From a virus, in IMG/VR virus record IMGVR_UViG_3300038620_000086, positions 8,841-72,840 of that record: a DNA stretch of 64,000 bases, one strand, 5' to 3'. Within the stretch, counting starts at the first letter, position 1, and each line of letters opens with the position of its first letter. Below are positions 1-23,578 of the stretch, piece after piece. The notes beneath the pieces are model-generated. The model was not told the origin of the DNA. It saw only the letters and a program-made list of their open reading frames with translations, and ran no database searches. The position numbers were made by a program, and so were the translations under genes.

Positions 1-2728
1 TAAGGTCAGTAACTGGTCTTCCCTGGTTTACTGATTCTTCTATGCTTAACTGAGTTATTTCTCTGTCCAGTTCACTAACTTCCTTGGAGGTTCGGTAAAG
101 TTTTTCTAGCTGTTTAATCTCCTGATCAGGGTCACTTATAAACCGACCGATTTGCATATAGATTTGTTCATAAGTCATTAGGAGGTCTTCTAGACCCCGA
201 CCAATTAGATCAGCTAGAGAAGCCTCTCTACTCATATCAACATTTGCGGCTTCTCGAACCGCTGGGATCCAATAAAGTAGGTTGGCAGGTACGTTTTGAG
301 ATACATCTTCCCAACGCTTAGCCATCTCTTGAATCCGGCGGCTGCCAACGCCAGAAACCCTGATCGTTCCATCTTGAGTAATAGCAACGTGAGGTTCTCT
401 ACCAACTTCACGTTGAAGAGTTGCTAGGGCACTTTCGACCTTATCTTTGTTTCCGGCGGATACAGTTGTTATAACCCCTCCCAGTACATTTTCTATAACG
501 TGCGACTGGAACCGACGAGCAATTCCTTGGAGTTTAACTAAGCTGAGGGAACTAGATTCGCTAGCAGTTCCTCCCTTAACGTCAAGACCAACATAGAGAT
601 TCTGAATTATCCCCATCAAGGGGTTTTTGCTTTCTCGGACGATTTGCCGGTTAAGTTCGTCCTCCATATGAGCTGAGGCTAGAGACAAACCTCTGAACAA
701 ACCGTAGCTTAAGAAAGAGGCAGATATAGCAGACACCGTCTCGGCTATTCCACCAAGACCTTTTTCAAATGGACCTGCGGGAAGCTCTTCAGGGTCATAA
801 TATTGACGGTCAGCAAATCCAGGAGAAGACTCGTAAAAACCCTCCCTCCTTCGCTGTTGTTCTTGGTAGTAGTAGTGAGCTGTGGCACGATCAAGTAGGT
901 GTCCTAACGTTGCCACTCCTCCTTCTAAAAAAGTTTCATCTTTCTCGAAGGCGGGGGAACGAAGTACATTAGGAAAAGATTGGTGAAGAAAACGATTCAA
1001 TCTTTCTTTAAATGGAACTCGGTTAAGATCCTCATTTAATTGCTCATCTTCAAAAGGAGTGACCTTAGGTAGCGTTGGTGCCCCTCGAAACTGACTATAA
1101 AATGACGCTGGTAGCTCAGAAGGAATTTTTACTTCTTCTTTCAGATAGTGCCTAGAACCTTCAACCGGTTTAGGAAGAGCGCGGATCGTTTTAACGCTGT
1201 AGACTGAAGGGTGATCATACTCCCCGCTTCCATAGTCAACCGAATCAACATCACCAATTTCGTTGGATCCTGACTTAATAGTGGTTGGTACAGACCTATC
1301 TAATCTTTCTACTGAAACGTTATCTAAAGAGTCTAGCTTTCCTATTAAGTTCTGATGCTCCCCGTAAGTTTGCTGTACAATGGACATTAGTTTCCGAATG
1401 CTCTTAGGATCCATCTCTGTGGTAATCCTCAATGCCATTTCTTCGTGAGATTCTCCAACAAACCGACGGGTTGTTAGATAAGCAACATCAGTTCCTTTCT
1501 CGTTAATGTCTTCAACGAAATAAAGGTTGTAGTGAGGTGTATCAGTCTTGGTACGATCTGGTTTTAGGAATTCTGCTCCGGCTCTTTCTAGGCGACTAAC
1601 GATCCTTTGTGTAGCCTCTTCGGGATCAACGTCTTTAGTTGCAATAGTAACGTCAGAACCAGTTCTTTCCTTAGCCTCTAGTAGCCCGACTATTTCCCGA
1701 AAATGCTCTTTTGCTTGTAGGTCTTTCTTAGATGGATCTTTACGATCCTCCATCTCATTATACTGGAAGGACGCAGTCGCAATTGTTACGTCTCCACTGG
1801 AACGCCTAATGTCCTCTTTTAGAGACTCAAATATGACGTTTCCGCCGCCTTTTACAATATCACCTTCATAAGACCTGTCCCTTTTCCCTTCAGCTTCCCT
1901 TTCGATCTGATTGTAATATTCTTCTACTTCTTTATGAACCTTAGGATGGGTTGTGTGGTAATATATATCAGTTGTTTGCTTCGCCATCGACTCACCTTTT
2001 TGGTTAGTTCCAAATGGTTGAGTTACAAAGAAGGTATGTTCTTCTCCTCCTTTTTCACCGATGATAAACTTGGAGTGAAGCAAACGAGGCTGAGATCCCC
2101 CTCCTTCGGTCAGTTCTCTCCCTTCGTAAGGTTTAAAGTTGCCGCCTTTACTATTCTGAAACTCTATGGCATTGCGTTTAACATTAACCTCAGTTGGTTC
2201 AAAGTTAGTAACGTCAACAATGACCTCGGCGTCGGATGACCGTAGAAAGTCCGCCTCTGTTTGTGTTCCAAAGATCGACGTCGTCCACCAATTTCTAATA
2301 GAACCAAATGGTCCAATTTTCTGCTCCTTCTTACTTTGAGATTCAAAACTATATTCCACCTTTGTTTTAGCTCTAGGATCAGCAATAAACTGAACAGCTT
2401 TTATATTCTCAAGATCACCTGTTAACTCTTTTACCTTCTCCGGAGTAGTGATCCCAGCTTCGACATGAGAGGCACTTCCCTCAAACTTTAGATTAGACCT
2501 CCATTGTTGGTCTTCAACATGGGAAAACCTCTTTCCCAATGCAACCCGAATTTCTTGATCCGAGTTCCGAGCTTGACTTGCCACTCTAGAGATTAATTTT
2601 TCTGTGTAGTGGCTTTCCTTAGAAAGAGATATATTAACTGTCTCGCCAGAAGACAAGATGTCATCCTCTTGTTCTGTATACTGGCGATACCATTGTGGAG
2701 CCTTAGTTTCAAATCCAACGGGAGCCAT
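1..2728 (-). CDS. Large protein, 3'-truncated by window edge (>=909 aa); degenerate PLD/HKD-like segments; candidate virion/ejection or tape-measure-type protein
   Basis: Not in ORF track. I translated the minus strand from ATG 2728 (MAPVGFETKAPQWYRQY...) to position 1 with no stop. It overlaps the upstream gene's stop by 20 nt. Contains LHSKFIIGE (2077-2054) and a PLD-like run (IRRSSGDVTIATASF...RLERAGAEF...PHYNLYFVE). Confidence 0.85.
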   Translation of the reverse strand, partial: MAPVGFETKAPQWYRQYTEQEDDILSSGETVNISLSKESHYTEKLISRVASQARNSDQEIRVALGKRFSHVEDQQWRSNLKFEGSASHVEAGITTPEKVKELTGDLENIKAVQFIADPRAKTKVEYSFESQSKKEQKIGPFGSIRNWWTTSIFGTQTEADFLRSSDAEVIVDVTNFEPTEVNVKRNAIEFQNSKGGNFKPYEGRELTEGGGSQPRLLHSKFIIGEKGGEEHTFFVTQPFGTNQKGESMAKQTTDIYYHTTHPKVHKEVEEYYNQIEREAEGKRDRSYEGDIVKGGGNVIFESLKEDIRRSSGDVTIATASFQYNEMEDRKDPSKKDLQAKEHFREIVGLLEAKERTGSDVTIATKDVDPEEATQRIVSRLERAGAEFLKPDRTKTDTPHYNLYFVEDINEKGTDVAYLTTRRFVGESHEEMALRITTEMDPKSIRKLMSIVQQTYGEHQNLIGKLDSLDNVSVERLDRSVPTTIKSGSNEIGDVDSVDYGSGEYDHPSVYSVKTIRALPKPVEGSRHYLKEEVKIPSELPASFYSQFRGAPTLPKVTPFEDEQLNEDLNRVPFKERLNRFLHQSFPNVLRSPAFEKDETFLEGGVATLGHLLDRATAHYYYQEQQRRREGFYESSPGFADRQYYDPEELPAGPFEKGLGGIAETVSAISASFLSYGLFRGLSLASAHMEDELNRQIVRESKNPLMGIIQNLYVGLDVKGGTASESSSLSLVKLQGIARRFQSHVIENVLGGVITTVSAGNKDKVESALATLQREVGREPHVAITQDGTIRVSGVGSRRIQEMAKRWEDVSQNVPANLLYWIPAVREAANVDMSREASLADLIGRGLEDLLMTYEQIYMQIGRFISDPDQEIKQLEKLYRTSKEVSELDREITQLSIEESVNQGRPVTDL

Positions 2729-3527
2729 ATAGACTATCGGTTTGGTCGCAAAGCAAAAGCTGGTCTAAAGAAACGGCTGGTTGATATTCTAAGTCAAAAG
2801 GATAGTCCGGCGGCGGAGACCAATCGGGCAAAAAGTTGAAGTAGTTCCAGCCTACTGACCATCGTAACGTATTTAGGGGGTAGCTTCTTGCCGCGATCGA
2901 TGCTAACCCGTAGAAGTCTCCAGGGAGGGGGATGGGAGCATAGGGCGGGTAGGGAACTAAAAGCCTGGTGATTCGGTGAATAGGAGTTTCTGGAACGACC
3001 CAATACTGAGTATCAATTGGCTCTCTTGGGTTGTCTTTGTGATAATATTCAACTTTATAGCGGTCAATCGGACTTGGGTGAGTCAGTACGCTTGGTGCTA
3101 GCTCCAACTTAAGATCACCATCTGCTGGAATAACTATGTTTCTCTTTTCTGGCAGGGGTTGTTCATAACCAAAGTAAGTGCTGTTTGGAGAGTAAATAGT
3201 GAGAAAATAGTCTGAGTGGTTAAACTTAGAGTCGGCTTCAGAGTTCTCAACTTTTATTGTCACCTCTTCGTAGCCTTCATCTAATAAGATGCTAGGAAGA
3301 GCAAATGTAATAGGGTCTAATCTTTTATACTCGAAAAGAGATCCAGAGAAGTCTTCAACGCCCTTCAAAACCTCGTTTTGTTCTTTCCATACTAAAGTAA
3401 ACTCATCCTCATTTTCTAACTGTGGGATGCGAAAAATTAGACTTACATCTGGTTCTACTGTTAGTTCTATGGGAGATTCAACCTCAATAGAAGACTGGAA
3501 CTTGATCCTAATAGGGGTCTTGTCCAA
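2709..3527 (-). CDS. Hypothetical protein (272 aa), probably virion-associated
   Basis: Long ORF overlapping both neighbours in the same orientation; no motif recognised. Confidence 0.75.
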   Translation of the reverse strand: MDKTPIRIKFQSSIEVESPIELTVEPDVSLIFRIPQLENEDEFTLVWKEQNEVLKGVEDFSGSLFEYKRLDPITFALPSILLDEGYEEVTIKVENSEADSKFNHSDYFLTIYSPNSTYFGYEQPLPEKRNIVIPADGDLKLELAPSVLTHPSPIDRYKVEYYHKDNPREPIDTQYWVVPETPIHRITRLLVPYPPYAPIPLPGDFYGLASIAARSYPLNTLRWSVGWNYFNFLPDWSPPPDYPFDLEYQPAVSLDQLLLCDQTDSLYGSRWI

Positions 3528-5295
3528 AATATCCTCCTTTTCTTCGTCTTTGTAAGTAGTCTAATCGGGACTTTCCTCTTTCTAAGAAAGAGGGATCAGA
3601 TCCTAAGAGTGAGGGGTCAAAGTTTTTATTGTCGGGCTGGTCTTCAGATTTCACCGACGATGCAGATACAACCCTTGGAATGTCATCTGAGTTCTCATCT
3701 CCAGTTAAATGCCAGACCACTGAAGCGATCCCATCTGCTAAGTCTTTACTCCCATTCTTCGGGTGGTCGATTCGTGTATTGTTAATCAACTCTAGCTGGT
3801 TAAGCTCATCTTTAGCCAGTTCTTTAACCGGCGAATCCTTAGGTAAAATGACCCTACCCTCATTCAGCATCGTTTGAAGCTGTTCGTAGATCATTAGCTG
3901 AAACTTGCCGCCGAAAAACTTTGCCTCAGCGTTAATGCCCCACTGTCTAATGCGTTGGATAGTCTCGGCATTCTGGTGATGGTCAGACGTCACCTTAAAG
4001 ATTGGTCGATGTTGGTGAATGTCAAATAAACATTCCTGAACGTTACTAATAGATACTTGATAGCCTGGGTCGGGTTGCCATGCCATAAGGACATCAATGG
4101 TAACGACTCTCAAGCCCTCTTCATTTCTCTCGGCATGACCAACTACTAAAGAGTAGGCATCTCGAACAACAGCAGGGTCAATATGGGCAATAGAAGGGGT
4201 ATCAGATTCAGTAACCTGTTTAATCCTTTTCTTAATTAGACCGCCCTTAGGCTCTTCGTCAGAATAGGTTACTTTAGAACGACCCCGGAAGCTCAACCTA
4301 ATGCTGTCAGGGTTTAAAAAGCGGGTTTGTGGGGTAATCCGCTTTCCTTCAAACTCCAGAGCTGCTTTTAAAGGGTTCAGAGAATACTCACTTCGAACAA
4401 CCGGGTTATCTCTAGCAGCGTGTTTAGGGTTGATATCCCAACTTTTTAGGCGAAAGCCAATAAAAGAGCTTTCATCTTCGGCAACCTTTTCATAAAGTTG
4501 TTCGATAGCATCTCCTGGTTCCCAAGCCGAACTTATAGCAACCCTCTTCGCTTCTGACCCAAACGTCATACCACTCAAACCTACGTTGCTCCAAAGGTTC
4601 TGAGCGTTGCTATTCCCCTCAGAGTCAACGGCGAACCTAGCCACCTCGTCCATCACCATGCAGATAACGTTCTGTCCGACTTGGCTAGAGCTTTCGCTGT
4701 TTCCAGGATAAATATGGACATTTTTCTCTTCATGGTCAATTGACTCTTTTCTTACAAAAACTTCACCTCTATCTATCATCCGTCTTAGTGGGCGGACTAG
4801 AGGGATCAAACCTCTAACATAAGAAAAGATCGTTTGCTTCGTCTGAGTAGCTGTCGTCGCGATCGCTAACAGTGAAATAGGAGAGTTCCCAGCTATACCA
4901 TAGTGCCCCTGTGGGTTATCCATCATAACTAGCTTTAGGAATTCATAAGCCAATATAATGGAAGCAAGATTACTTTTACCTCCACGCCTCCCTGCTTCTA
5001 AAATGAGTCCCTGATATTCTTTGTCAGGATCCATTGGATCCCAAGTCGTTTTCTGATCGTAGCGCCACCTCTCAAGTATTTCTCTATCACCTTTATCTAG
5101 CTTGGCTCCATAAAGCACTTTTAGAACTAACAACTGTTCCTTACAAAGCTCAATCCCCCATTTCTCCTGATCAATCTCATTTTCGACGAAATTAACAATA
5201 TCGGTATTTAAACCCCAAGAAGAGGATGACTTGATACTAAAGGCTAAATCTTGGAAGAAGTTCGACTCGTCTATTGATTCCTGCTGTTTTGCCAT
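3508..5295 (-). CDS. terL: Terminase large subunit
   Basis: Walker A (AGRRGGKS), Walker B (CMVMDEVARF), coupling motif (AISSA), RNase H-like nuclease aspartates (AHIDPA, VTSDHHQ, SKDLADG). Confidence 0.93.
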   Translation of the reverse strand: MAKQQESIDESNFFQDLAFSIKSSSSWGLNTDIVNFVENEIDQEKWGIELCKEQLLVLKVLYGAKLDKGDREILERWRYDQKTTWDPMDPDKEYQGLILEAGRRGGKSNLASIILAYEFLKLVMMDNPQGHYGIAGNSPISLLAIATTATQTKQTIFSYVRGLIPLVRPLRRMIDRGEVFVRKESIDHEEKNVHIYPGNSESSSQVGQNVICMVMDEVARFAVDSEGNSNAQNLWSNVGLSGMTFGSEAKRVAISSAWEPGDAIEQLYEKVAEDESSFIGFRLKSWDINPKHAARDNPVVRSEYSLNPLKAALEFEGKRITPQTRFLNPDSIRLSFRGRSKVTYSDEEPKGGLIKKRIKQVTESDTPSIAHIDPAVVRDAYSLVVGHAERNEEGLRVVTIDVLMAWQPDPGYQVSISNVQECLFDIHQHRPIFKVTSDHHQNAETIQRIRQWGINAEAKFFGGKFQLMIYEQLQTMLNEGRVILPKDSPVKELAKDELNQLELINNTRIDHPKNGSKDLADGIASVVWHLTGDENSDDIPRVVSASSVKSEDQPDNKNFDPSLLGSDPSFLERGKSRLDYLQRRRKGGYFGQDPY

Positions 5296-6195
5296 TTATG
5301 CCTGTCCAATTAACTTCACAGCTTCCAGCCAATAGTTCAATTCAACCGAACGGTCTAAAGATTCCACGACCAACTCTGCAAGGGAGTTAAAGTTATCTAG
5401 ATCCAGCCGGTTGGAAGGAGTGCTAGATAAAGTAAAGTCTGAGATAGACATCCTTAGCCCCTCGTTAGGGAGTAGGGTATCCCCAACGACTGTGCTGTCA
5501 GTGTTCCTAACAAAATAGTTGTTTCCAGAATCTAATGTGATCGGGAAGGATTCTGTCCAAAATGGTTGAGTCGTTCCTACTAAGTTTTCCTTAAGAAGAT
5601 CCACTTCAAGTTGGTTCGGCAATGACCGGTTATTTCCAGTAACCACTTCAATTTGGTAGCTAATAATCCGAGCATTTCCCAAAAATCCTGGAGGATAGAC
5701 TGAAAAGGAATCACCGTTAAACAGCTTTCGATAGCCAGAGATGACATACCGACTAAGATTGTCTAAGAGGTCACCAGAGATACTCCCCCTACGGGAGTCA
5801 GCGATTTGTATCTGTGCCGAACCCTGGATGGTATTTACATTACTAATTCTCCGAGCGTCATCAAGAACTGAAGGATCATTATCTGGATCCTCTCCGGATA
5901 ATAAGAAGTAAAGAAGCTCATTTTCTACAGATTTAACTGCTGGTTGACTCGCTTGAAACGCACTAGCGGTTATCTGAGAAAGAGTTGTTCCTTCAGGGAA
6001 TACCCTTTCGAGGTTGTTATCTACAATATATAAGACATCCCCAGGTCTAGCATCAATTAGCCTTGGGTCATCGGGGCTCACCGGTTGATGAGAATGACTG
6101 TTGTACTTAATAAAAGCGTCTTCTACATCATCTACGGAGTCATCCCCAAATAGCGAACTTGAAAAAGTAACTTGATGACTTGACTGGACACTCAA
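5296..6195 (-). CDS. Hypothetical protein (299 aa), TTG start, abuts terL
   Basis: GGGAG 8 nt upstream of TTG; stop directly adjacent to the terL ATG. Confidence 0.75.
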   Translation of the reverse strand: MSVQSSHQVTFSSSLFGDDSVDDVEDAFIKYNSHSHQPVSPDDPRLIDARPGDVLYIVDNNLERVFPEGTTLSQITASAFQASQPAVKSVENELLYFLLSGEDPDNDPSVLDDARRISNVNTIQGSAQIQIADSRRGSISGDLLDNLSRYVISGYRKLFNGDSFSVYPPGFLGNARIISYQIEVVTGNNRSLPNQLEVDLLKENLVGTTQPFWTESFPITLDSGNNYFVRNTDSTVVGDTLLPNEGLRMSISDFTLSSTPSNRLDLDNFNSLAELVVESLDRSVELNYWLEAVKLIGQA

Positions 6196-6200
6196 AATGC

Positions 6201-6248
6201 AATCTCCCAGCTCTACTAGTTCAATTCTCTCTTGAGAGCTGGAAGATT
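6201..6248 (-). promoter_or_regulatory. 14-bp RNA stem-loop that sequesters the Shine-Dalgarno of the 299-aa gene
   Basis: Minus-strand transcript AAUCUUCCAGCUCU (6248-6235) pairs with AGAGCUGGGAGAUU (6214-6201) with a single U-G wobble; the 3' arm contains GGGAG (6208-6204). Confidence 0.6.
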
Positions 6249-6267
6249 ACGTTTCAATCTTTTTTCT

Positions 6268-7158
6268 TCAATCGCTTATCGAGTATCCAAACAGCATAAT
6301 ATCTCCGACAACGCTGCTACCACCACTAGAAGGTTGTAGGACTTCTATGTAAAGGTGATTGTTATTAGTTTCAAAGGCAGAACCCGCAAAGAAATAATGA
6401 GAGAGAACAGAATTAGACGTATAAGTTCCTGGGACTAAAGTAAAGTCTTCAGTCCTATTGTAGGTTGATCCATCATACCAACCAAACCGATAAACTGTAT
6501 CTGTTGGCTGGTTTCCATCAGCTTCGTCTCTAACGAAGAAATCTAGATGATGTGGAACAAACCAATCTAAAATAGTCGGACGGAATAAAACTAGTGGTCC
6601 TTCTGAAACAGTAGAGATATCGACAGATCGGATTCGAGCCTTCAGACTGATCTGAGAAGGACCACCCGCTGTCGGTATGTATTTCCAATGACCATTGTCT
6701 GGGTTGTCCTGTATAGGAATCTTATAGTAACTATCATCTGCTAAAGGAATAGTATCTAAGCGGTCAGCTTGATAAAGACCGCCATATCCATCCCCTACTT
6801 CGTTACGACCTAATACTAGGGCATACTGGTCATGTCCCCTATCGGTAGGTGGCAGGTATGTTCTTAATACTTGGTTAGCGTTTTCGTTACCTTCTTCATC
6901 GGTTGACAAAGGGAGAACTAAGGGGTAACGTCCTCTATCGTCTAGTAAAACGCGATCATTACGGTCAAGAATACGATGGGATCCATCGCTGTGAGAGAGT
7001 CTTACGTCGGTTCTAAGACGCTCGTTAAGAACGGGATTAGCTGATGACCCGTCATGAACGACGATTGTATCGAGGCTAGTGCTATATGTAACTTCTCCCT
7101 CAAGCCCCGAAAAGTTGTCATAATTAGAGATCCGCCTAAACTGAAACTCTAGTGGCAT
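6268..7158 (-). CDS. Fibre/receptor-binding-type virion protein with Mtd_N/hyaluronidase-N-like N-terminal domain
   Basis: N-terminus FQFRR...FSGLEGEVTYSTSLDTIVVHDG matches the QxRR...GE...DT.....HDG pattern of phage fibre N-termini. Confidence 0.65.
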   Translation of the reverse strand: MPLEFQFRRISNYDNFSGLEGEVTYSTSLDTIVVHDGSSANPVLNERLRTDVRLSHSDGSHRILDRNDRVLLDDRGRYPLVLPLSTDEEGNENANQVLRTYLPPTDRGHDQYALVLGRNEVGDGYGGLYQADRLDTIPLADDSYYKIPIQDNPDNGHWKYIPTAGGPSQISLKARIRSVDISTVSEGPLVLFRPTILDWFVPHHLDFFVRDEADGNQPTDTVYRFGWYDGSTYNRTEDFTLVPGTYTSNSVLSHYFFAGSAFETNNNHLYIEVLQPSSGGSSVVGDIMLFGYSISD

Positions 7159-7539
7159 TTATGTCTCCTTTATTTCCAAGTCATATGCTTTAACAACAAG
7201 GGACTTCCCAGGTGATACCCTTTTTCCGGAGTCATTTACCACAGCACCCCAATAGGTAGCTTTGTCTCCTTTGGGGTCTTGCCACAATACGAAATAACGG
7301 ACGTTGACGTCTTTGTTGCCATTATTAACTAAGGTTAACTCAGTCTTATTATAGGAAGATTCACCATCGGTATCCCAATCTGAGAACTCTATAAAGCTTC
7401 CTTTATCCCACTCGACTGGTGTTGGCTGAGTTGACTCTGGGTCAGATCCTGGATCCTTTTCATAAAAGGCAATGTAAACAGGATTGTCAACGAAAACGTT
7501 GGTTTGAAGTCGGTTTTGGAATCCGTCTGTTTTTGGCAT
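7159..7539 (-). CDS. Small virion/tail-associated protein (126 aa), paralog of 33774..34175
   Basis: Pattern YIAFYEKDPG...N...VRYFVLWQDP.G.....G......V.PG....K..DLEI shared with the 133-aa ORF; resembles a widespread small phage structural family. Confidence 0.7.
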   Translation of the reverse strand: MPKTDGFQNRLQTNVFVDNPVYIAFYEKDPGSDPESTQPTPVEWDKGSFIEFSDWDTDGESSYNKTELTLVNNGNKDVNVRYFVLWQDPKGDKATYWGAVVNDSGKRVSPGKSLVVKAYDLEIKET

Positions 7540-7545
7540 AGTTAG

Positions 7546-7821
7546 TTATAAAGGCGATAGGTAGCAATAAATCTGACCAGCATTCATGGAAGATCCATTT
7601 AGAATCTTCTTCACTGCGATTGGATAGATACGACCTGTTTCAACAGGAAGAGTACGAGTTTTACCACTGAAGGTTTCAAATTCGAGGCTTCCTCCAGATG
7701 TTACCTCGATGCCCATTACCATCGGCGGGAGGTTTTGGTTGAATCCTACCTCATTCAATGGGAAAACATCGTAAAAAGGAGAAGTATTTCGAGAGATTTG
7801 GGATGAGTAGTTATTTACCAT
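7546..7821 (-). CDS. Head-spike base protein-like (RcGTA Rcc01079 family-like), 91 aa
   Basis: NLPPMVMGIEVTSGGSLEF...GKTRTLPVETGRIYPIAVKKI...AGQIY resembles the L...RALYVG.GG.V...G...TF.V.AG..LPI.V.RV pattern, and the size fits that family. Confidence 0.55.
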   Translation of the reverse strand: MVNNYSSQISRNTSPFYDVFPLNEVGFNQNLPPMVMGIEVTSGGSLEFETFSGKTRTLPVETGRIYPIAVKKILNGSSMNAGQIYCYLSPL

Positions 7822-7828
7822 GCTAAGA

Positions 7829-7845
7829 TGACGAACGGTTCGTCA
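7829..7845. repeat. Dispersed palindrome copy 1 (TGACGAAC-G-GTTCGTCA), intergenic
   Basis: Perfect 8-1-8 palindrome between the cpcA-like stop and the spike-base-like start. Confidence 0.85.
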
Positions 7846-7851
7846 GAGTAT

Positions 7852-9666
7852 CTACAAACTAGATCGGATATATTCAATAAATTCAACCGCCTTATCTTTC
7901 TGATCGGCTTGTGTAACAGTAAAAGAAACAGAGGTGTCAGAAGGCATTGTCTCCGTCTCATCGGGAAGAAAATAATCCTGAGGGTTATTCTCTAACTCCT
8001 CACGAAGCCATCTTAAAGCTTCTTTATACCATTTGGGGTCAAGCCCAAACGTTTCATTAACCTCCTTTAGCTCATCTAAGAACAGCTTATCAAGAAGACC
8101 GGTGTCATTGGCAACAAGTCCATAAGTTAAGTACCGAACATAATATTCGATATCACGGATACATTTACTTATCTGCGTTCCATTGTAGGAAAAAGGTTCT
8201 CTTTGGAACGGACTGTCTTCAGGCGGACGGTTGTCAGGAATCATGACAGTCTCATATCCCTCCGTCTTCTTAACTGCTTGTCCTCCTTTATCTGACTCTA
8301 GTATTTGGAGGATCATATCTAAATAGACGTGGACGGCACTAACTACATCCATACAACTATCAGCCGCAGGAGTGATGTCATATTTAGACAGGTCGATGGG
8401 AGAATTGTCTATTATGGCATCTCCCTGAATAACCTTAACTAAACGACTACGAAAGCCTTCTTTACCATCTCCTCCGTTAAAGGCTTTTTTATAGTTCTCG
8501 ACTATCTCCTCGTAACTTGGAGTACCACTCTTATTAGCTTGGTCAAGCAAAGCCTGTCTAGATTGAACCGCATAGTCATGAACTCTATCATTGCCGGTAT
8601 GTTTTAGATTGTAGGCGATCGCGTCTAGGAAAAACTTAAGATCCCGCGGGTACCTAGAAGGGTCATAAGTGGAGGTATCAGAGGTGACGACTGGAGGAGT
8701 CGCTATCCAACCTTTTAGCCCTACGTTACCGTTTCCATCATCGTAAGTGTTACTATCACTTTCGGTTATTAACTTGGCTGCATCAGCTAAACGACCTTCA
8801 CCAATGCCCTGGTCTCCATAAGGATTAGAACGTCTGGCTAAACTTCCTGCCCCTTTGTCTATAACGTCTAATATGAGATCAAGAAAAGTATCAGCAGTAG
8901 CTATAACACTTACGAAGCGGTCACCATAGGTTATATCTGGATCCTGCTTAGCCGATCCGTCTAAGACCATACGAAGGCGGTCACGGACTCCCTCATCTGT
9001 ATTCGATCCATTGCTCGTTCCGTTAATGGCAAGCTCATAGTTAATAACAATCGTTGAAAAGCTAGGACCGCTCTCATTACTTTGTTTCTGCAACGCATTT
9101 CTAGAGATCATGGCATAGTCATAAACTTGACTATTCCCACCCTCTACGATGTTGTACGCGATCGCTTCCAAGAAGAATTCAATGTCGCGGATACACTTCT
9201 CTTGGATGCTTGAGAGGTCATCTCTATTAACAACTGAGGGAGCACTGGCAATCCAGTTCTTATTGGTCAGAATGAGATTCCGAGCATCTTCTTTTCGATT
9301 GCGATGCTTATCTCCTACAAGCTCATAGAATCCGACTTTTCTGGGTTCATCAGGACGATCAAACTGAACACCAAAGATTTCTTGTCCACCGTAGTAAGGG
9401 TTTCCAGAAAGGGTTCTTGGAAAAGTAGAGTAAACACTGTTAGTTGCCTGCTCTACTAAATGGCTACTATGATTTGATATTGATTCAGCAGCCATAAGAG
9501 CAGCTAACCCATCTTTATAAGACCATTGGTCGTTAGCGGTGGGATCACTTGAGGAAGAGGACGAGTTGAACCGTTTGTTGGCAGTTATTAGATCATCATC
9601 CCTTATCTCTCTTAAATTTTGGCTATCGATTAATAGCGCTACTTCAGTAAGCTTTGATAAAGTCAT
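7852..9666 (-). CDS. Phycocyanin alpha (CpcA)-like protein split by two internal phycobiliprotein-like repeats (604 aa)
   Basis: N-term SKLTEVALLIDSQ...AALMAAESISNHSSHLVEQATNSVYSTFP aligns with CpcA TPLTEAVAAADSQ...ASLEAAKAL...LVNGAAQAVYNKFP. C-term SKCIRDIEYYVRYLTYGLVANDTGLLDKLFLDELKEVNETFGLDPKWYKEALRWL...AVEFIEYIRSSL aligns with CpcA [54 protein letters not shown]...EANSYLDYAINAL. C502 equals alpha-Cys84. Confidence 0.85.
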   Translation of the reverse strand: MTLSKLTEVALLIDSQNLREIRDDDLITANKRFNSSSSSSDPTANDQWSYKDGLAALMAAESISNHSSHLVEQATNSVYSTFPRTLSGNPYYGGQEIFGVQFDRPDEPRKVGFYELVGDKHRNRKEDARNLILTNKNWIASAPSVVNRDDLSSIQEKCIRDIEFFLEAIAYNIVEGGNSQVYDYAMISRNALQKQSNESGPSFSTIVINYELAINGTSNGSNTDEGVRDRLRMVLDGSAKQDPDITYGDRFVSVIATADTFLDLILDVIDKGAGSLARRSNPYGDQGIGEGRLADAAKLITESDSNTYDDGNGNVGLKGWIATPPVVTSDTSTYDPSRYPRDLKFFLDAIAYNLKHTGNDRVHDYAVQSRQALLDQANKSGTPSYEEIVENYKKAFNGGDGKEGFRSRLVKVIQGDAIIDNSPIDLSKYDITPAADSCMDVVSAVHVYLDMILQILESDKGGQAVKKTEGYETVMIPDNRPPEDSPFQREPFSYNGTQISKCIRDIEYYVRYLTYGLVANDTGLLDKLFLDELKEVNETFGLDPKWYKEALRWLREELENNPQDYFLPDETETMPSDTSVSFTVTQADQKDKAVEFIEYIRSSL

Positions 9667-10262
9667 ACTCCGTCTCGGGCAATGTCAAAGTAGGTTTTCA
9701 ACTCTGAATAGAGATCAGAACAGTTGGGAAGAGAGCCACCATATTCACTAGCAGGACTAACTGACCATTTATAAGGATCCTCCCAACCGCTAGGATTGTC
9801 TCCTTTTTCGTGGTCAAGGTATTTTATTGCTTCCTCCCACATATTCTCTACACTCTCTGCTACATACTCTCTTGGGGTTCCCAAAGATTTATAGGTTTCT
9901 TTTAAGCCGTCAAGACATCTAATGGTCAAGATACTGGGATCTCCGCACAGAAAGCTAAGGGTAACATACTTCAAGAGAAAGTCCATATCCCGAATACAAG
10001 CTTGATTACGCCGGTTCGGGTAGGCATTTCCTCCTGGTAGCACTAAATGAGGACGGTCTCTAAATAGCTTTCTAGCTGCATTTAAGACAATGTCATCAGT
10101 CTTATCCCTTAACCGACGAACAATATCAAATCGGCGGTTTTTCTCCCTCATAATCTCTTTAAGCTTAGAAAAGACTTCAGGCTTTATGTACTGCCCCCTC
10201 TGGTCAGCTTGCATAACAGCCCTCGTATAAGCATCATGAATAAAATCTCTAGGTTCAGACAT
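9663..10262 (-). CDS. cpcB: Phycocyanin beta (CpcB)-like phycobiliprotein (199 aa)
   Basis: DAYTRAVMQADQRG, IVLNAARKLF, PGGNAYPNRRNQACIRDMDFLLKYVT, GDPSILTIRCLDGLKETYKSLGTP and NCSDLYSELKTYFD are collinear with CpcB. N79 (methylated beta-Asn72), C89 (beta-Cys82/84) and C181 (beta-Cys153/155) are retained. Confidence 0.9.
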   Translation of the reverse strand: MSEPRDFIHDAYTRAVMQADQRGQYIKPEVFSKLKEIMREKNRRFDIVRRLRDKTDDIVLNAARKLFRDRPHLVLPGGNAYPNRRNQACIRDMDFLLKYVTLSFLCGDPSILTIRCLDGLKETYKSLGTPREYVAESVENMWEEAIKYLDHEKGDNPSGWEDPYKWSVSPASEYGGSLPNCSDLYSELKTYFDIARDGV

Positions 10263-10989
10263 TTATTCTAAAACTCCCTTCCTGTAGCTGTTGTTCAAAC
10301 ATTTTCTTGACTTCCTCAGGTAAGTCACAACGTTGGGAAAGATCATCCAGGCTTTCATAATCTCCTTTTTCCCTCTCCTCTATAATTCGGGCAGCCAACG
10401 TTGAGTCTACGTTTGGGAAACGATCATAGCTTAGTTGAGCAGAATCCACGAGGTTCAGAGTCGCAACACTATATTTTCGGTTCCAGAACTCTTCATAGGA
10501 TATTTCAGGGGCTAACAGTGACATCAACTGCCTAAGAGGAACTTTCCTTGAACTAAGTATCAAAGAACTAGCCTTTTCTCTATCAGCGGGGTCAGGAATT
10601 ATCTCGGTAAATCGCTGCCAATATCCCACAATAGCTTTCAACAGGTCATATGAATTTTTATAGGGATATGTTCCATCCCAGCGTTGGTAGTTTTGAAGAT
10701 TCTTAGAAGAAAACTGACTCTTCACTAAGTTCCTATCGTCAGAATCCAGATTGTATAAAGCCCCTTTTGCTTTGAAAATGAGCTTAGTTACCCAACAAAC
10801 TGATCGGTGAGCAGACTCTGGAAAGTAGATGCACCAACCATAAGAAGACTCGTCTAGAAGGTGGGGAAAATAGCCAAATACCTTTTTAGAACGAACTCCT
10901 TGGTCAAAAGGCTCTGGGAAGGTTATTCTAAGGCATTCTTGGTTCAGTAAAGATGCCGTCTTTCCATCAGGTACAACATAATATAACAT
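10255..10989 (-). CDS. Hypothetical protein with C-terminal helix-hairpin-helix (ComEA/PsbU-like fold) domain
   Basis: LNL...FPNVDSTLAARIIEEREKGDYESLDDL matches the HHH_3/ComEA pattern; overlaps the cpcB-like start by 8 nt. Confidence 0.6.
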   Translation of the reverse strand: MLYYVVPDGKTASLLNQECLRITFPEPFDQGVRSKKVFGYFPHLLDESSYGWCIYFPESAHRSVCWVTKLIFKAKGALYNLDSDDRNLVKSQFSSKNLQNYQRWDGTYPYKNSYDLLKAIVGYWQRFTEIIPDPADREKASSLILSSRKVPLRQLMSLLAPEISYEEFWNRKYSVATLNLVDSAQLSYDRFPNVDSTLAARIIEEREKGDYESLDDLSQRCDLPEEVKKMFEQQLQEGSFRINV

Positions 10990-10992
10990 AAG

Positions 10993-11205
10993 CTACTGGA
11001 CTACTTTAACAACGCCGTTGGAGTCCTGATACCAATCACCGGGGACTAATCCACCCGTTTTAGCCGCAGAGTCATCAGCGTATTGAGGAAGGCTAAGACT
11101 AATTGGACTGCCATCCTCAATTTCTTGTAATCCCTCTACACTACCATCATCGCTGAGCTTTATTGTGATTAGCCGCATTGTACTACTGGGATTGAATGGG
11201 TCCAA
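10993..11205 (-). CDS. Small virion protein (70 aa) with fibre-tip-like motif
   Basis: LPQYADDSAAKTGGLVPGDWYQDSNGVVKVV resembles a motif common at phage fibre C-termini; fills the gap between two genes. Confidence 0.55.
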   Translation of the reverse strand: MDPFNPSSTMRLITIKLSDDGSVEGLQEIEDGSPISLSLPQYADDSAAKTGGLVPGDWYQDSNGVVKVVQ

Positions 11206-14200
11206 TGTCTATTCTACCGTTTGTAAGTCGGCTGTTACCAATCATATCCTTCTGTAGAACTTCAGGATCTATGTCGAACTGGTTAGAATTGGACACTCCA
11301 CCGTGGATCCCATCGATGTAAGAATATACATCACCTGGTATAAGATTAGGATCACCAGACTCGATCAAGGGACTTTCTTCTTTCGGCTTGAGAATATTAC
11401 CATACTGAGACCCACCGGAAAATAGGTAATAGCTTTTATCTTCTTTCTCTATAGAAATTGTTTCTTCCTCTAAAAGACTAGAAAGGTTACCGACTTCAAT
11501 AGGAGAGACTGGAGTTTCAATAGTGGGATCTCCACGTTCGTACACAAACTCTGTAGACATATTATCATCCTCCTCGTAAAAGTTAGGAGCAATTAATCTC
11601 ACAGTCTCATCCGAACTTAATTGAAGATTCTGGCTAGTTGCTGTATTTCCGATATAGAAAGTATGTCGGTCGGTTCTAAACGTTCCTTTCATCGACTCCG
11701 TACCTGCAAATAAGCAATTGAAGATGAAGTTACTCGAATCACTATCATAATGATGACCTAAAGATACTTTGTTTGGAAATAAACAGTTATAGAGGAAGAG
11801 AGCACAATCGTTAAGTCCCCCGGCAATATCCCCACTCTCAATGTAAGAGTTGATTAGAATTAAATAGGATCTAGATCCTACAAAAAACCCTGCATTACGC
11901 CTGCCACCAATACTATCAGGTATTCGACAATTTATTAAGACTACAATGCTATCTTCTCCAAAGTTAGTGATTCCTGTTCCTTTACTATAACTACCATCAT
12001 TACTTCTACCCTCTTTAAGAGTAAGGTTTTCGAGGAATAGACTAGACTCTCCTGGAGACGTTCCCCGAAAGATGTGGAAATCTCTAACTTCGGAAGAGCG
12101 CTCAATAGTCGCACCAAACTTTTTAGGTGCAACTATCTTAATTCCTTGTTTTACTTCTATTTCTCTCTCAACTATTATGTGCTCTGCAACAACCAGAATA
12201 GTTGACATATTCTCTGCATTCTCTACAACCTGTTTTAGTTGTCTCCCATTAAAAGCAACGTGATCAAAGTCAATTCCGAGAGCAGAAGCTAGAAGATCCC
12301 TTACTCGAAAATTTCGCCCCATCAACAGAAACTCTGGGACTTGATCAGTAGGAGTTCTAGTGTTTAATCCGTAAAGTTGAGAGAAGTAATCTTGGAGAAA
12401 TAGTGGTTGATTAGGAATTCTATAGTCTGTAGAGAGAATTCCATATATACTTCCTCGGAAGGAAGTACCTACATTAGGGGTAAACTGGTTCTTAACAGAT
12501 TCAGCCCCTCTAGCATCAATTTCATAGCGATCCTTATTAACTATTAGAGCAGGTCGCCTAATATCAGCAGTATCAATGCTAAATAGGTTGTCATTCGGCT
12601 TTGGAAATTCTACTGTTCTTCTCCAAACTCGTTCGTCGTTGAGATGGAGTTTTCTAACTTCACTCGGCCAATAGTCGAATCCAAAACTTGTCGAATCTAG
12701 TATATAAAGCTCATTTGATATAGAAGCTAACTTATAATAGTTACTATCTGGTTTCCTACCATCTTGTGTGCGGACTTTACGCCGAGAACCAAATAATCCA
12801 TAGTCCTCCCAATAACCTTCTTTTTGAGGATTGTCTTTATCAGGTTTGTATTTCTGAAGGATTCCTAGATCCTCTACCTCCGGCGTTCTGTTCACAGAAA
12901 GCCGATAAAGAGATCCGTTATGGAATTCTAAGATCCTACCTCCTAAAGGTTCTTCCCCAATATTAGTTTCTACTTCAGTGAATCCAGATGAAGGGTCTGT
13001 CGAATAGTATAGAAAAGGACTCTGAGGACCCCATTCGACTCCATATCTACCTCTATCTTCTCCGCTTGGCTGTATCCAAAGTTGAGGTTCTCCTTTTTCT
13101 AGTTCGGGAACATCACCAATAGCAAATGATAGGTATTCTACGCCGGTATCATTATTTCTTTCTATAGAGAAGACTTCGTTCTTGTTCTCATCATACAACC
13201 TGTACATCCTCGTATCTGAGTTGTATTGAAGGAAGTAGATATACCCCTTATAGACAACTGCACCAATAATGCCTTTATTGAGATTATCTAGGCTATATAA
13301 CTCCATTAGGTCATGATTGATCCCATTCCACCCTCTTTCATCTCTATCAGCAGTTAGAAGCGCAAATTCTAAGTCATTAGAACGCTTCCATACATAATAT
13401 ATTCTAGTCCCCTCCGTATTTTTAAAGAAGTGATCTCTTACGAGCCAAAATACAACGGGATACTGACCATCTATATCTGGAGTTTGGTCAGCATAATAAA
13501 GTTTAGGATTATAGAGATTGAAATAGTTGTCTACAAACTGCCCATAGTGACTATCTTCTTCTTCCTCATTATCCTCTCCTGGGTAATAGAATATATCAAG
13601 CTTTAGAAGATTTCCTCCCTGGAAGAAAAGCAATCCAGCTTTATCTATATCCCAACGGTAATATCGAACTGCCGCTCCAAAGCTAAATTTAGGTCCTTCA
13701 TTCTGAATAATGGCATCTTGTACGCCTTCATCATGGTTGTAATATTTGATTCTACAGTTAGTTCTATGCTGGTGACTCTCTGTAAAGTACAAGTGACCCT
13801 TCCAGGGAATTAAGTTATTATGTTTGACATGACTAAAGCTACCAGCAGCATTGAATGGAATTTGGACTAGTTGTTCACTATTGTTTTGGCGACTACTTGA
13901 GTTCCATCTCCAAAGCTCTGTATCATAGTTATTATCAACAAGAATATAAATCTCCTCACCATTCCCAGAACCATCCTCAAATACAGTAATATAGTGAGGT
14001 TCTCTATTTCCAGAAAAACTAGCTCTCTGTTGGAAATTAGTACCAGATGGATCATCCATAGAGTATAACCTCTGCTCACTTGCAGAAACAGTCCAAATTT
14101 CATTATCAGAGGTGCGGACAGAAGAAACAGGTCTATCTATATAAGGATGCTCTGGTTGTTCATAATACCAACCTCCAGCATAACCCCCATGCAAAATTCT

Positions 14201-17200
14201 TAACTTATCTTCACTCTCCCCGTAATAAGCTATATATTCCCACTGATTGTTCCTACCCTCTGAGTTAAAGTTATTAGGGTTCACTTCACTGAACCGATAG
14301 ATACCTTTTCCATAGTTTCCGTCACCTTTTTCATCGCTCTTTCCCTGTTCGAGATGTTCATTAAAACTGTCTCCTCCATAATACCGCCACATTTTAATAT
14401 CGGTTTCTTCATCCCAGATGCCTATCCAGCAGTCCTGATTAGCTAAGATGTCAGATATATGTCCCATGCCAGCAGGTTTATTTGCTCTTACAAAGAATCC
14501 TTGACCAATACCCCACTGAGGTGTCGGCATATGATAAAGCTCCTGGGTTGCCCTATCAAGAGCGACCAGTCCTATATCAGCGTGTACGATAACAGGGTCA
14601 AATAGGTCTGTCCCTCGCTCCAAAGCCCAACTTTCTCCATCAGAAGTCGAGAAGATAAACCCATCGTTAGAAGCTGCATAAAGTTTATTGTTAAAACCAC
14701 TTATCTCAAAAGAAGCTACTCGTCTATAGTTACCTCTTGGTAATTCAGATCCTTCTACGGGATATCTTTTGGTTGCCAGGTTTAAGGCTATACTCCAGTG
14801 AATACCGTCAAAATAGAGAACATAGGAAGCAGATTTTATAAGATTATCTTCTTGGTTAGACCCAACAAAAAGAGTGCCCTTAAACTCTTTCAGAGGCTCA
14901 CCGATTTGGTAGGTAGGAACAAATCTGTCTCCAGCAGGTGTATATCCCCGACCCCACCAAGCTTCTTCAGACCAAGCAAAGTAAAGGTCTCCATCATGAT
15001 TATGACATAGTGTATAGAAGATGTAATTGGGGTTTATACCTTTTTCTGTCCTTTCAACGTCTTCTGGGGGATCGATAACTTGTATACGATAAGGATGATC
15101 GACTTCATATCTATCCTTAGTAAACCATTCTGTATCTGTTTTATTATCTATTGCATATACATAGTTACGACCAACAACATATAGTCTTTCATCTTCTTTT
15201 TCACCGGCAGTAGCAAAGTTTATCGGGTATTCTCCAGGAAAAGAATCCTCTGAAAAGTTGTTTTCGTTAAGTTCATAGTCATACCGGAATACCTTGTTGC
15301 TCCAACTGCAAGCTATATGAAGAATCTGAGTTAGTGGTGAAAAGTAAAGACCTCTAGGAGACGAGTTTTCTCCCAGTTGGCTAGAATCAAACTCTACTCT
15401 CCAATCTTCTGGATCCATATCACCGTTACTAGTGATAGCTCCATCATAACGCCATATTTCGTCGCTACCAGAGCAAGAAACAAGCAAATAAGTATTACCG
15501 CCCTCACTTACTTCTACAATTTCAGAGGGCTTATTGCCAACCTGTACAAAACTCCAACCATCAGTTGGATTATACCGACCTACTTCATCAGAGCCTTGAA
15601 AAGTAACATATAAAGATTCAGCACCATTATCTGTAAAAACTATCATTCTATGAGGATGTAGATGATCAGTCCACGTAAAGTCCTTATTTGGTCCCTCAAT
15701 GACAGAAACTTTGTTGCTTCGACTGTAGCAGCAGTAAAGATCCCCATCATACTTCATAAGGTCTAAAGGTCTGTCACCATTATTCTCAGTATGCACTTTC
15801 CATTTCTTTGGAGAGCCTTCATATCGCCAGACCTGACTTTTATCTGCTAAAGTCAGATAGAGTTGCCCATTGTATTTATAGAGGCAAGTTGGTTTGTCCT
15901 TTGTTCCTGTCATAGAGAAGAATCCATTAACTTCTCCTCTCCAAGTAAGCTCTAAAGTTTCATCTTCGTAGTCTAAAGAGTAGGGCTCAGTATCGATTAT
16001 TCTTTGAATAGATCGGTCGGAGTTATCAATATCTAATCCTAGTGTCAACAGGTCTGACCGGAACACACTATTGTCTTGAGCGGGCGGTAAGTTAAATTCC
16101 TTAGAGGTTCCTTGCAGAGGGTCTTGAGGTTGAAGGTAGGTAGTTAGGTCACCAGTCTGGTTTTGTGTAGCGTTGCTCCAACCAGATATACTATCTTCAA
16201 AGGTTTCTTTTAAAAGGAGCCTTTGAGCCCCATCACTAATTTCTAAGTTGTCTATCCCAAACGTTCTTCCGGGGTCAGACTTAATGCTGACTTGAAAGAC
16301 CTGCTGATAGGGGAATTCAATAGATATCCGGTAGTAGTCCTCCTCAACTTTTTCTATGAGCCATTCTTTTTCTCCGAGACTTCCGGAAGATGTAGAAGTG
16401 ATATTTAATAGTTCAGAGTAAATTATGGGGTCACTTCCATCAAGCTCTAGGACAAATCTTGTATCAGCCCAATTTCCCAGAAGATAAACATCAAACTTAA
16501 GTTCAACTGATAACTGAAGATCTAAGGTTTGGGTTTCCTCAAAGTTGATCCGGTTTGTGTCTAAATAGCTAGGTTTTATGTCTTGGTCTTTTTGAGTCAG
16601 GATCGCCGATGATTTTATGTCCTGCCAGCGTTCGATTCCGGAAGTCGATAGAATTACACTGCTAGCTGATGTGGCATTAAACCAGTTTTTAAGTGAATCT
16701 TCAAGGCTGAATAGGTTCCATGATGTATCTATGAAAGCCGAAGATAGATTATCTACACATGACCCGAGGTCTAGTTGGTCAGCACTGGCTGAAAATATAA
16801 CCCTTACCAGTATCCGCTCCTGGTAACAGAGAACAAAGTTCTCCACCTTGGCTACAACTGCTGAAAGCTCTGAGGAGTAATATAAATCCTCTGCTATTCC
16901 ATATTTAGGAGAGATGGTAATGCTGTCGAGTAGCTTTCCATTGTCGAAAATAAGAACCTCATTTCTAAGAAGTTGAGAGCTAATAGAGGGTTTGGTTAAA
17001 CAGTATAAATAGCCGTCCCTCATCGAAACATCTATTCCGATAGGAACACGATCAGCAGCTTTGTTTGTGCCTCCCAAAGACTCAATTGGATAACGGCTAA
17101 TAGGAAACTCTCTAACCAGATTGCCTTTCAGGGAAAATTCCGCGATTGTTTGCCTGGTTAGGTTGGTAGCAACAACAAGTTCTCTGATACTATCATACGC

Positions 17201-23572: not shown

Positions 23573-23578
23573 TGTTAG

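Follow-up and report, generated by a model that had tools for sequence, protein, structure and literature searches.

The window analyzed in the present study is a 64,000-nucleotide (nt) stretch of viral DNA, bases 8841-72840 of the 72,840-bp linear IMG/VR record IMGVR_UViG_3300038620_000086, which is estimated to be 38% complete, and it carries two adjacent genes for phycobiliprotein-like subunits. Positions below refer to the window unless stated otherwise. The first of these genes in the direction of transcription (9663-10262, minus strand; P0001) encodes a phycocyanin-beta-like protein of 199 amino acids (aa), and the second (7852-9666, minus strand; P0002) a phycocyanin-alpha-like protein of 604 aa. 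An earlier sequence-only reading of this DNA had described a cpcB-cpcA order with a 4-nt overlap and had suggested a search with the phycobiliprotein profile PF00502. The overlap is an ATGA in which the beta stop and the alpha start are combined, and both proteins scored above the gathering cut-off of the profile (22.2), beta with 140.8 bits (E 4.5e-41) and alpha with 95.1 bits in three stretches (E 5.4e-27). A six-frame PF00502 search of the whole record returned the same four places only.

Regarding beta, the best 37 distinct rows among solved structures were all phycocyanin, R-phycocyanin, or phycoerythrocyanin beta (E 9.8e-43 to 1.6e-35), with phycoerythrin beta as the next group (E 1e-28), and residues 10-151 aligned residue by residue with solved phycocyanin beta. 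The score with the NCBIfam model TIGR01339 was 160.2 bits, which is under the equivalog cut-off of 279.3 and still the highest of six phycobiliprotein models. Only 176 proteins among 1.84 billion representatives matched beta at E <= 1e-3; the top match belonged to its own family (59% identity), and the next was a cellular-type protein of 172 aa (45%). Compared with cellular CpcB, beta is extended by 7 aa at its N terminus and contains 21-23 additional aa between helices G and H, directly before C181. In an alignment to cellular CpcB with a check of the codons, N79 (10026-10028) was equivalent to Asn72, C89 (9996-9998) to Cys82, and C181 (9720-9722) to Cys153, and the bilin site also contained R84, R85, R91, and D92. 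With alpha C502, described below, all three chromophore cysteines and the methyl-asparagine site that the sequence-only reading had listed have equivalents. In phycocyanin, Asn72 is the methyl-asparagine site and two of the beta arginines bind the propionates.

The alpha protein scored 97.1 bits with TIGR01338, again in three stretches, which is under the equivalog cut-off of 269.45 and the highest among the six phycobiliprotein models. These two low equivalog scores and the 45% identity of beta to its nearest cellular representative agree with the heavy divergence noted previously. Insertions had also been noted, and they are present relative to cellular CpcA, with approximately 17 aa between helices Y and A, 390 aa in the B-E loop, and 20 aa, predicted as a hairpin, before the last helix; however, they consist mainly of the B-E-loop insert, which appears to comprise two phycobiliprotein-fold domains with extra conserved cysteine sites. 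Residues 1-111 (9334-9666, minus strand) cover helices X, Y, A, and B (profile positions 24-62 of PF00502), and residues 469-604 (7852-8262, minus strand) cover helices E to H (positions 68-132, 63.7 bits) and include C502-x-R504-D505 (8152-8163, minus strand), C502 being the equivalent of Cys84; both segments were placed by the CpcA alignment as well. Between them lie repeat R1 (residues 112-285; 8812-9333, minus strand), with an aligned C158-x-R160-D161 motif that begins at 9193-9195, and repeat R2 (residues 288-468; 8263-8805, minus strand), which is supported by hhalign to R1 and by the family alignment and contains Y339-x-R341-D342 (Y339 at 8650-8652) and a late cysteine, C438 (8353-8355).

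An AlphaFold2 model of alpha from a 12-row alignment had a predicted local distance difference test score (pLDDT) of 67.3 and a predicted template modeling score (pTM) of 0.43, with residues 1-46, the X-Y part, below 50. In a re-examination of the best 1000 chains that Foldseek returned from the PDB, residues 29..604 aligned to phycobiliprotein alpha chains over 144-147 residues (Z 14-15.8, root-mean-square deviation 3.1-3.3), with 29-30% identity to CpcA chains. Since the two ends of the protein align jointly, they appear to rebuild one globin domain. Similarly, R1 (111/115..270 of the model) aligned to phycobiliprotein beta chains over 137-142 residues (Z ~14, root-mean-square deviation 2.7-3.1, 14-18% identity), on account of which it is regarded as a whole phycobiliprotein globin core devoid of the X-Y hairpin. 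R1 and R2 matched each other in hhalign with a probability of 100 (E 5.8e-49), and a profile of 30 phycobiliprotein representatives matched the repeats at E 1.6e-5 to 9e-5, their C-x-R-D falling on Cys82-x-Arg-Asp; in the controls, E was 0.29-0.85 for the reversed alignment and 0.25-0.88 for ten column shuffles. Positions 73-104 of PF00502 were also found in R1 (17.8 bits). At the end of the repeats, a cysteine immediately precedes the last helix, and its surroundings (D-x-C ... Y-[FL]-D) resemble the Cys153 region of beta. As judged from profiles and model, alpha is a discontinuous phycocyanin alpha globin split by an insert of two tandem phycobiliprotein-fold domains.

The sequence-only reading had called for multimer modeling of the two proteins. 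With both family alignments, the predicted complex reached an ipSAE of 0.70 (0.80, 0.62, and 0.70 in the runs), whereas all three pairing controls scored 0.00; 58 of 80 solved complexes and 2 of 110 mismatched pairs attain the 0.70 mark. The runs shared at least 65% of contacts, and the pLDDT of the partners was at least 71. The predicted interface is the classical X-Y interface, formed by residues 1-67 and 511-528 of alpha with residues 7-55 and 95-115 of beta, with an extra contact between the beta insert (166-175) and the alpha hairpin (572-577), and it includes no residue of the 390-aa alpha insert. The alpha-beta interface is predicted to be kept in sequence, although the prediction is no proof of binding, and the high score may reflect likeness to phycocyanin because phycocyanin complexes have been solved.

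The pair belongs to a small family of its own. We found 11 full-length relatives of alpha (594-616 aa, 46-54% identity, 99-100% coverage) and eight of beta (199-202 aa, 59-70% identity). The beta residues N79, R84, R85, C89, R91, D92, and C181 were invariant in all nine family members, and C158-R160-D161, R341-D342, C438, and C502-R504-D505 in all 12 alphas. Two further repeat cysteines, at the late site of R1 and at position 339 of R2, were present in 11 of the 12 alphas and missing solely from the window copy, in which the former was lost by a deletion at about 8890-8920 and the latter is a tyrosine; these sites are therefore dispensable here. A phylogeny, which had also been proposed as a check, was inferred from 47 rows, namely, nine viral betas, eight cellular proteins (two metagenomic cpcBA loci), and, out of 149 representatives, the 30 with a length of 155-190 aa. 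The viral betas formed one clade (support 100, stem length 1.04) within the phycocyanin-beta group (support 81), next to a phycoerythrin-beta-like group. A single long-stemmed clade in this position is consistent with a cpcBA operon that was captured once, long ago, then changed rapidly, and later diversified in the phage lineage.

Beyond this family, beta gave no tblastn match in 50,697 phage records. In IMG/VR, neither the single proteins nor the two family alignments retrieved a relative of the pair, and just one locus with a fiber domain was found (L006, discussed below). A scan of JGI metagenomes with the alpha alignment yielded 16 loci and no full-length relative; two that were inspected (L010 and L021) were cellular cpcBA operons, and the other 14 matched part of alpha, mostly the C-terminal domain. 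Scans of GTDB genomes found no relative of alpha and, for beta, only cellular phycobiliprotein beta genes with 35-42% identity. A full-text literature search, the scope of which excluded subscription journals and supplementary files, found neither a phage-encoded phycobiliprotein pair nor a phycobiliprotein-like fiber domain.

Since the record is a metagenome assembly, linear and far from complete, a chimera or a misjoining of cellular cpcBA DNA to a phage contig had to be considered, as the sequence-only reading had itself urged. We regard this explanation as hardly credible. In the Logan assemblies, one contig (14,196 nt), which possibly derives from the source sample, matched 6800-11600 and reproduced these 4.8 kb with 0 differences. 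Ten of 12 Logan pieces from a second study were at least 99% alike, and one contig from that study (378 nt) spans 9586-9963 and crosses the beta/alpha junction. In addition, a contig from a saltern, which represents a diverged relative with 28 differences, spans 7699-8173 and crosses the junction between alpha and the downstream spike-base gene; among the matched pieces of the second study, no contig crossed the junction between beta and the 244-aa gene upstream. The DNA was present in tidal-flat metagenomes from three studies, and no RNA sample was listed for this region. The identity to cellular proteins is just 45% for beta and approximately 30% for the alpha core, the pair forms a family with 8-11 relatives, the guanine-plus-cytosine content is even throughout the pair region, and the reading frames overlap with phage neighbors, all of which argues against an artefact.

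The relatives of the alpha insert are found in virion proteins. Residues 116-272 of alpha matched the PHROG tail-fiber families phrog_4527 (E 3.3e-11) and phrog_5342 (E 4.1e-7), and all six records in a tblastn search with alpha were from Synechococcus phages (S-RSM4, S-WAM2, and S-H9-2), the genes concerned bearing tail or virion structural annotations; the matched S-RSM4 segment shows the same C-x-R-D helix and late-cysteine helices. A fiber protein of 2569 aa (P0025), which emerged when longer proteins were sought, contains 14 C-x-R-D repeats, to the profile of which R1 and R2 matched in hhalign with probabilities of 95.6 and 96.9 (R2 E 1.5e-10). The IMG/VR locus L006 (4180-16734 of its contig) encodes a protein of 4184 aa with 22 C-x-R-D repeats of 108-117 aa, arranged in blocks with spacers of approximately 385 aa, and its N-terminal end domain resembles the one in P0025. 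Of these three, only P0025 passed the PF00502 cut-off (47.5 bits), while the L006 protein scored 19.5 bits, below the cut-off, and the S-RSM4 segment gave no match. When the alpha model was compared with BFVD, nine matches at E <= 1e-3 (best 5.7e-7) were to tail, tail-fiber-like, or structural proteins of Synechococcus phages and to uncultured Caudovirales, and all five named matches were tail or structural proteins of Synechococcus phages (E 5.7e-7 to 4e-4).

With the repeat as the only query, 56 phage records were matched, comprising 43 Synechococcus, 10 Cyanophage, and 2 Syn1 records and 1 marine single-cell virus. The entire P0025 protein, a query that included the non-repeat end domains, gave 306 matches, among them two non-cyanophage records (Pelagibacter and Ralstonia). 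The repeat profile was detected in 14 of 18 T4-like cyanophage genomes, always within open reading frames (ORFs) of 2900-7100 aa, and C-x-R-D was the most conserved feature of fiber repeats that are otherwise 22-30% identical. A host bias of the fiber repeat was considered and rejected, as 53 Synechococcus or Cyanophage records versus 2 Prochlorococcus records did not differ from the gp8 background of 433 versus 24 (Fisher p = 0.75). A model of the short L006 repeats (two repeats of 108 aa), for which eight two-unit stretches of the 22 units were used, was poor (pLDDT 59.5), and Foldseek returned no match for it at E <= 1e-3, with cyclin and phycobiliprotein rows mixed. From the profile and model comparisons, the insert domains of alpha belong to the C-x-R-D repeat family of the giant tail-fiber and baseplate proteins of T4-like cyanophages. 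This domain seems to serve as a building block in cyanophage appendages, and apparently no link between it and phycobiliproteins has been made before.

The surroundings of the pair are those of a structural block. Immediately upstream, a gene for a 244-aa protein (10255-10989, minus strand) overlaps the beta start by 8 nt, and further upstream lies an ORF of 4129 aa (11183-23572, minus strand), which is known to us as an ORF only and had been labeled a fiber in the sequence-only reading. That reading had chained the pair to this ORF by overlaps or tiny gaps; the overlaps of 8 and 4 nt stand, but a gap of 193 nt separates the 244-aa gene from the 4129-aa ORF, unless a possible TTG-start ORF of 70 aa (10993-11205), the reality of which is uncertain, is a gene. 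The two downstream neighbors that had been named were both recovered. A gap of 30 nt separates alpha from the gene for a 91-aa spike-base protein of the RCAP_Rcc01079 family (7546-7821, minus strand; NF048002 29.8 bits versus a cut-off of 28), and the large terminase gene terL lies at 3508-5295 (minus strand; phrog_17415, E 3.2e-20). Between them are three minus-strand ORFs of 126, 296, and 299 aa (5296-7539), two of which are weakly fiber-like with sub-cut-off matches (PF23140 Gp80, E 0.0018; PF18454 Mtd_N, E 0.0013); the 299-aa ORF matched nothing in the profile library. No terminator-like site was found on the gene strand in 5000-12000, and promoter-like sites in the region did not exceed chance level. 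In tblastn searches, the capsid protein matched cyanophages only, all 10 records being Ma-LMM01-type Microcystis phages or a Microcoleus phage (~28% identity), and the best matches of the terminase were Ma-LMM01-type Microcystis phages (31.6% identity). The phage is thus a cyanobacterial myovirus that is distant from isolates, with the Ma-LMM01 type as the nearest by these two proteins.

Considering these results together, we tentatively propose, with a probability of roughly 45%, that the two proteins form a phycobiliprotein heterodimer that is made late and associated with the appendages, in which the fiber-type domains of alpha provide the tie to the fiber or spike and the bilin pockets are probably still used. 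A host cpcB-cpcA operon would have been captured once by a cyanophage and turned into this protein pair. Beta and alpha may be made together from the structural transcript because their stop and start codons overlap and the strand lacks a terminator-like site. The subunits would pair through their X-Y helical hairpins as in phycocyanin, with the contact between the beta G-H insert and the C-terminal hairpin of alpha as a lineage-specific addition, and the two B-E-loop domains of alpha would point away from beta and dock the heterodimer onto, or build it into, the fiber or spike apparatus. The strong constraint on the bilin-holding residues suggests that host lyases probably load the pockets with phycocyanobilin of the host. 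A structural role is argued from the place of the genes, the overlapping frames, the fiber and spike-base neighbors, and the fact that the relatives of the insert are only virion proteins, while pigment binding is argued from the full set of bilin-site residues, which is invariant in beta and in the alpha core.

The sequence-only reading had called the pair exapted late proteins. Its phage-borne, phycocyanin-derived, and conserved nature within an appendage and packaging block is borne out, whereas late expression, incorporation into the virion, and chromophore attachment are what we infer. For such a pair in such a block, exaptation fits better than a classical auxiliary metabolic gene, which would be host-like and lie outside the virion block; the pair is located among fiber, spike-base, and terminase genes, and beta is only 45% identical to its nearest cellular representative. 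Regarding the uses that had been suggested, we tentatively rank a pigmented appendage and a ring-shaped hub above a decoy.

Several observations weigh against the proposed appendage heterodimer. Gene position alone is no proof of a virion protein. The linkage of beta and alpha in relatives is suggested from equal contig sizes alone, the longest contig of five of the eight beta relatives being equal in size to that of an alpha relative (193,383; 26,500; 8,264; 4,551; and 3,669). Confidence in the alpha model is modest, its Foldseek E-values against the PDB are weak (best 0.04), and a Z of ~14 is inside the range (13-14) reached by chance among unrelated helical models; for these last two reasons, sequence profiles were compared too, and the hhalign probability between the repeats and phycobiliproteins was just 59-79%. 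Of the four repeat cysteines kept by 11 of the 12 alphas, two are missing from the window copy. Moreover, in agreement with the sequence-only reading, which had found no linker, lyase, ho1, or pcyA gene, no match to CpeT/CpcT, CpeS/CpcS, HEAT_PBS, bilin reductase, heme oxygenase, NblA, or phycobilisome-linker families was obtained in the whole 72,840-bp record; this record covers only ~38% of the genome and leaves approximately 62% out of view, and enzymes of the host could take on the task.

The missing lyase gene and the two lost repeat cysteines would be readily accommodated if the phycobiliprotein fold were used as a bilin-free scaffold, that is, as a helical building block in which the Cys, Arg, and Asp residues serve folding, a disulfide, or inter-domain contacts. 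The occurrence of C-x-R-D up to 22 times in a single fiber protein (L006) also points in this direction, as do the repeats in phages of Prochlorococcus (P-HM1/2, P-RSM4, and P-SSM7), hosts with little phycobiliprotein, and we know of no report of colored cyanophage preparations. However, the bilin-contact set of beta, which includes the methyl-asparagine site and two arginines, is invariant among proteins of 59-70% identity, a constraint that fold stability hardly explains, and C-x-R-D is the very feature that is conserved best in the strongly diverged fiber repeats. We consider a bilin-free scaffold to be unlikely, though a serious possibility.

The retained host features allow another interpretation, namely, an intracellular auxiliary protein or decoy that is not packaged and that caps or poisons the rods, diverts energy transfer, or sequesters lyases and bilin of the host. 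The genes are descended from the cpcBA of a host and have retained its gene order, and the predicted alpha-beta interface and the chromophore sites are kept. The nearest isolates by capsid and terminase are Ma-LMM01-type phages, a group that carries nblA. Cyanophages are known to target phycobilisomes via NblA (PMC12695635). On the other hand, the pair lies in the fiber, spike, and terminase block with overlapping frames, away from early or metabolic genes, it has diverged strongly (45% identity, with both equivalog cut-offs missed), the 390-aa fiber-type insert is expected to hamper entry into host rods, and the insert has its relatives solely among tail, baseplate, or virion structural proteins. 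A decoy function is rather unlikely in our view.

In comparison with known systems, the pair shares with cellular CpcB and CpcA the beta-alpha order, the globin-like fold with the X-Y hairpin, the predicted canonical interface, and equivalents of Cys82, Cys153, and Asn72 in beta and of Cys84 in alpha, with Arg-Asp following beta Cys82 and alpha Cys84. It differs from them in being phage-encoded within a structural block, in its low equivalog scores (160 versus 279 and 97 versus 269 bits), in the extension and insert of beta and the three inserts of alpha, and in the lack of a linker, lyase, or bilin gene in the record. The repeats of T4-like cyanophages (SRSM4_151, SRSM4_214, S-PM2 p091, and S-CAM4 gp236) are the same domain as R1 and R2 (phrog_4527/5342), with the C-x-R-D helix in common and, in longer units, a late cysteine that precedes the last helix. 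There, proteins of 2500-7100 aa contain the domain as a string of 3 to 22 units, whereas in the pair, two copies lie inside a phycocyanin alpha that has a beta partner. The core-membrane linker ApcE resembles alpha in that a phycobiliprotein domain is interrupted by an insertion, and ApcE chains were among the weak Foldseek rows of alpha (ranks 24 and 43). In ApcE, the PB-loop is situated between helix B and helix E, which is also where alpha has its insert; the loop is short and itself no phycobiliprotein domain, and ApcE is a cellular protein that anchors the phycobilisome.

Among viral genes related to phycobilisomes, the sequence-only reading had named nblA, lyases of the cpeT type, and bilin-synthesis enzymes as those known in cyanophages, which agrees with the literature and with T4-like phage records, in which cpeT and ho1 are annotated. 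Similar to the pair, nblA, cpeT, pebS/pcyA, and ho1 are phage-borne host pigment genes; however, they encode enzymes or a degradation adaptor, whereas the pair represents the pigment-binding apoproteins. The nearest published case is a cpcB that was assigned, as an auxiliary gene, to metatranscriptomic contigs of RNA viruses from glaciers (PMC12581897); it is a single beta, interpreted as supporting photosynthesis, with no alpha partner, structural context, or domain insertion.

The targets of the CpeT lyase and the bilin enzymes encoded by phages are unclear. In S-CAM4 (L035) and S-RSM4 (L036), cpeT is located on the same strand as, and immediately upstream of, a giant repeat-bearing gene annotated as 'short tail fiber', and coordinates indicate an identical arrangement of cpeT and a repeat-bearing giant fiber gene in S-PM2 (163961-170139) and Syn1 (19950-26036). 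Just tRNA genes or an HNH endonuclease gene lie between the two genes in these four phages. Regarding other arrangements, cpeT of P-HM2 (L034, 19862-27654) adjoins YadA-domain and fiber genes without C-x-R-D, and the repeats of this phage are in a gp7-like ORF of 4458 aa and an ORF of 3682 aa. In P-SSM2 (L038, 213709-216727), in which the repeat and CpeT profiles were unmatched, a heme oxygenase gene is upstream of a repeat-free tail-fiber gene with an HNH endonuclease gene between them, and the end domains of this fiber protein are 42% identical to those of P0025. Among 18 cyanomyovirus genomes, 12 had both the repeats and CpeT, three neither, two only the repeats, and one only CpeT (Fisher p = 0.044, rising to 0.053 when the near-duplicate P-HM1 is dropped), a statistic that ignores kinship.

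The fiber repeats may also be viewed in terms of adsorption. According to a published study (PMC6628666), S-PM2, P-HM1, and P-HM2 adsorb in the light only, whereas P-SSM2 and P-SSP7 also adsorb in the dark; the light requirement of S-PM2 is independent of photosynthesis, and adsorption that depends on light is believed to involve host receptors and/or fibers of the tail. We found the repeats in S-PM2, P-HM1, and P-HM2 and no match in P-SSM2 and P-SSP7, which is a small and non-independent sample. The C-x-R-D domains of the pair and of the fibers and baseplates of T4-like cyanophages might all bind bilin, with pigmented fibers acting as the light sensor of adsorption and with CpeT and the bilin enzymes serving them, an extension that we regard as quite doubtful at present.

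Phycobiliproteins are known as cellular antennae, which phages are known to attack or to service and not to encode as apoproteins. The pair shows that a phage lineage has long kept both subunits, with the pigment pockets intact, among its appendage genes. The pair bridges true phycocyanin and the repeat domain of giant fibers in sequence and predicted structure, which suggests an origin for the fiber domains and makes the substrates of phage cpeT and bilin genes, as well as the light sensor of light-dependent adsorption, accessible to testing. Even if the domains are pigment-free, the fold of a photosynthetic antenna would have been recruited as virion building material.

One candidate for a partner or a chaperone of the beta/alpha pair is the 244-aa protein. 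Its C-terminal region is of the helix-hairpin-helix type, with weak sub-cut-off matches to HHH_6, HHH_3, and PsbU (PsbU E 0.007) and ComEA-like helix-hairpin-helix proteins as structural neighbors in the Atlas (TM <0.4), and the N-terminal ~180 aa gave no match in library and structure searches. The C-x-R-D motif was absent from the 4129-aa ORF and from 16 other large proteins of the window in a motif scan.

Nearly all long ORFs of the window are on the minus strand. PHROG matches identified a head protease (56379-58487), a major head protein (55006-56364), a tail sheath of 1058 aa (47532-50708; E 1.5e-20), baseplate genes (36584-38108), and a fiber protein (27072-31280). Two further sheath-like proteins, of 1256 aa (41196-44966; E 1.3e-15) and 830 aa (31282-33774; E 1.1e-47), also matched tail-sheath PHROGs, and three separate large matches of this type are unusual within a single myovirus tail module. 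At the other end, a giant minus-strand ORF extends from 2728 past the window end into bases 1-8840 of the record and leaves the record after at least ~3850 aa; it occupies 2-2728 of the window, and its only match, a weak one, was to phrog_29513, a family of unknown function (E 8.9e-10).

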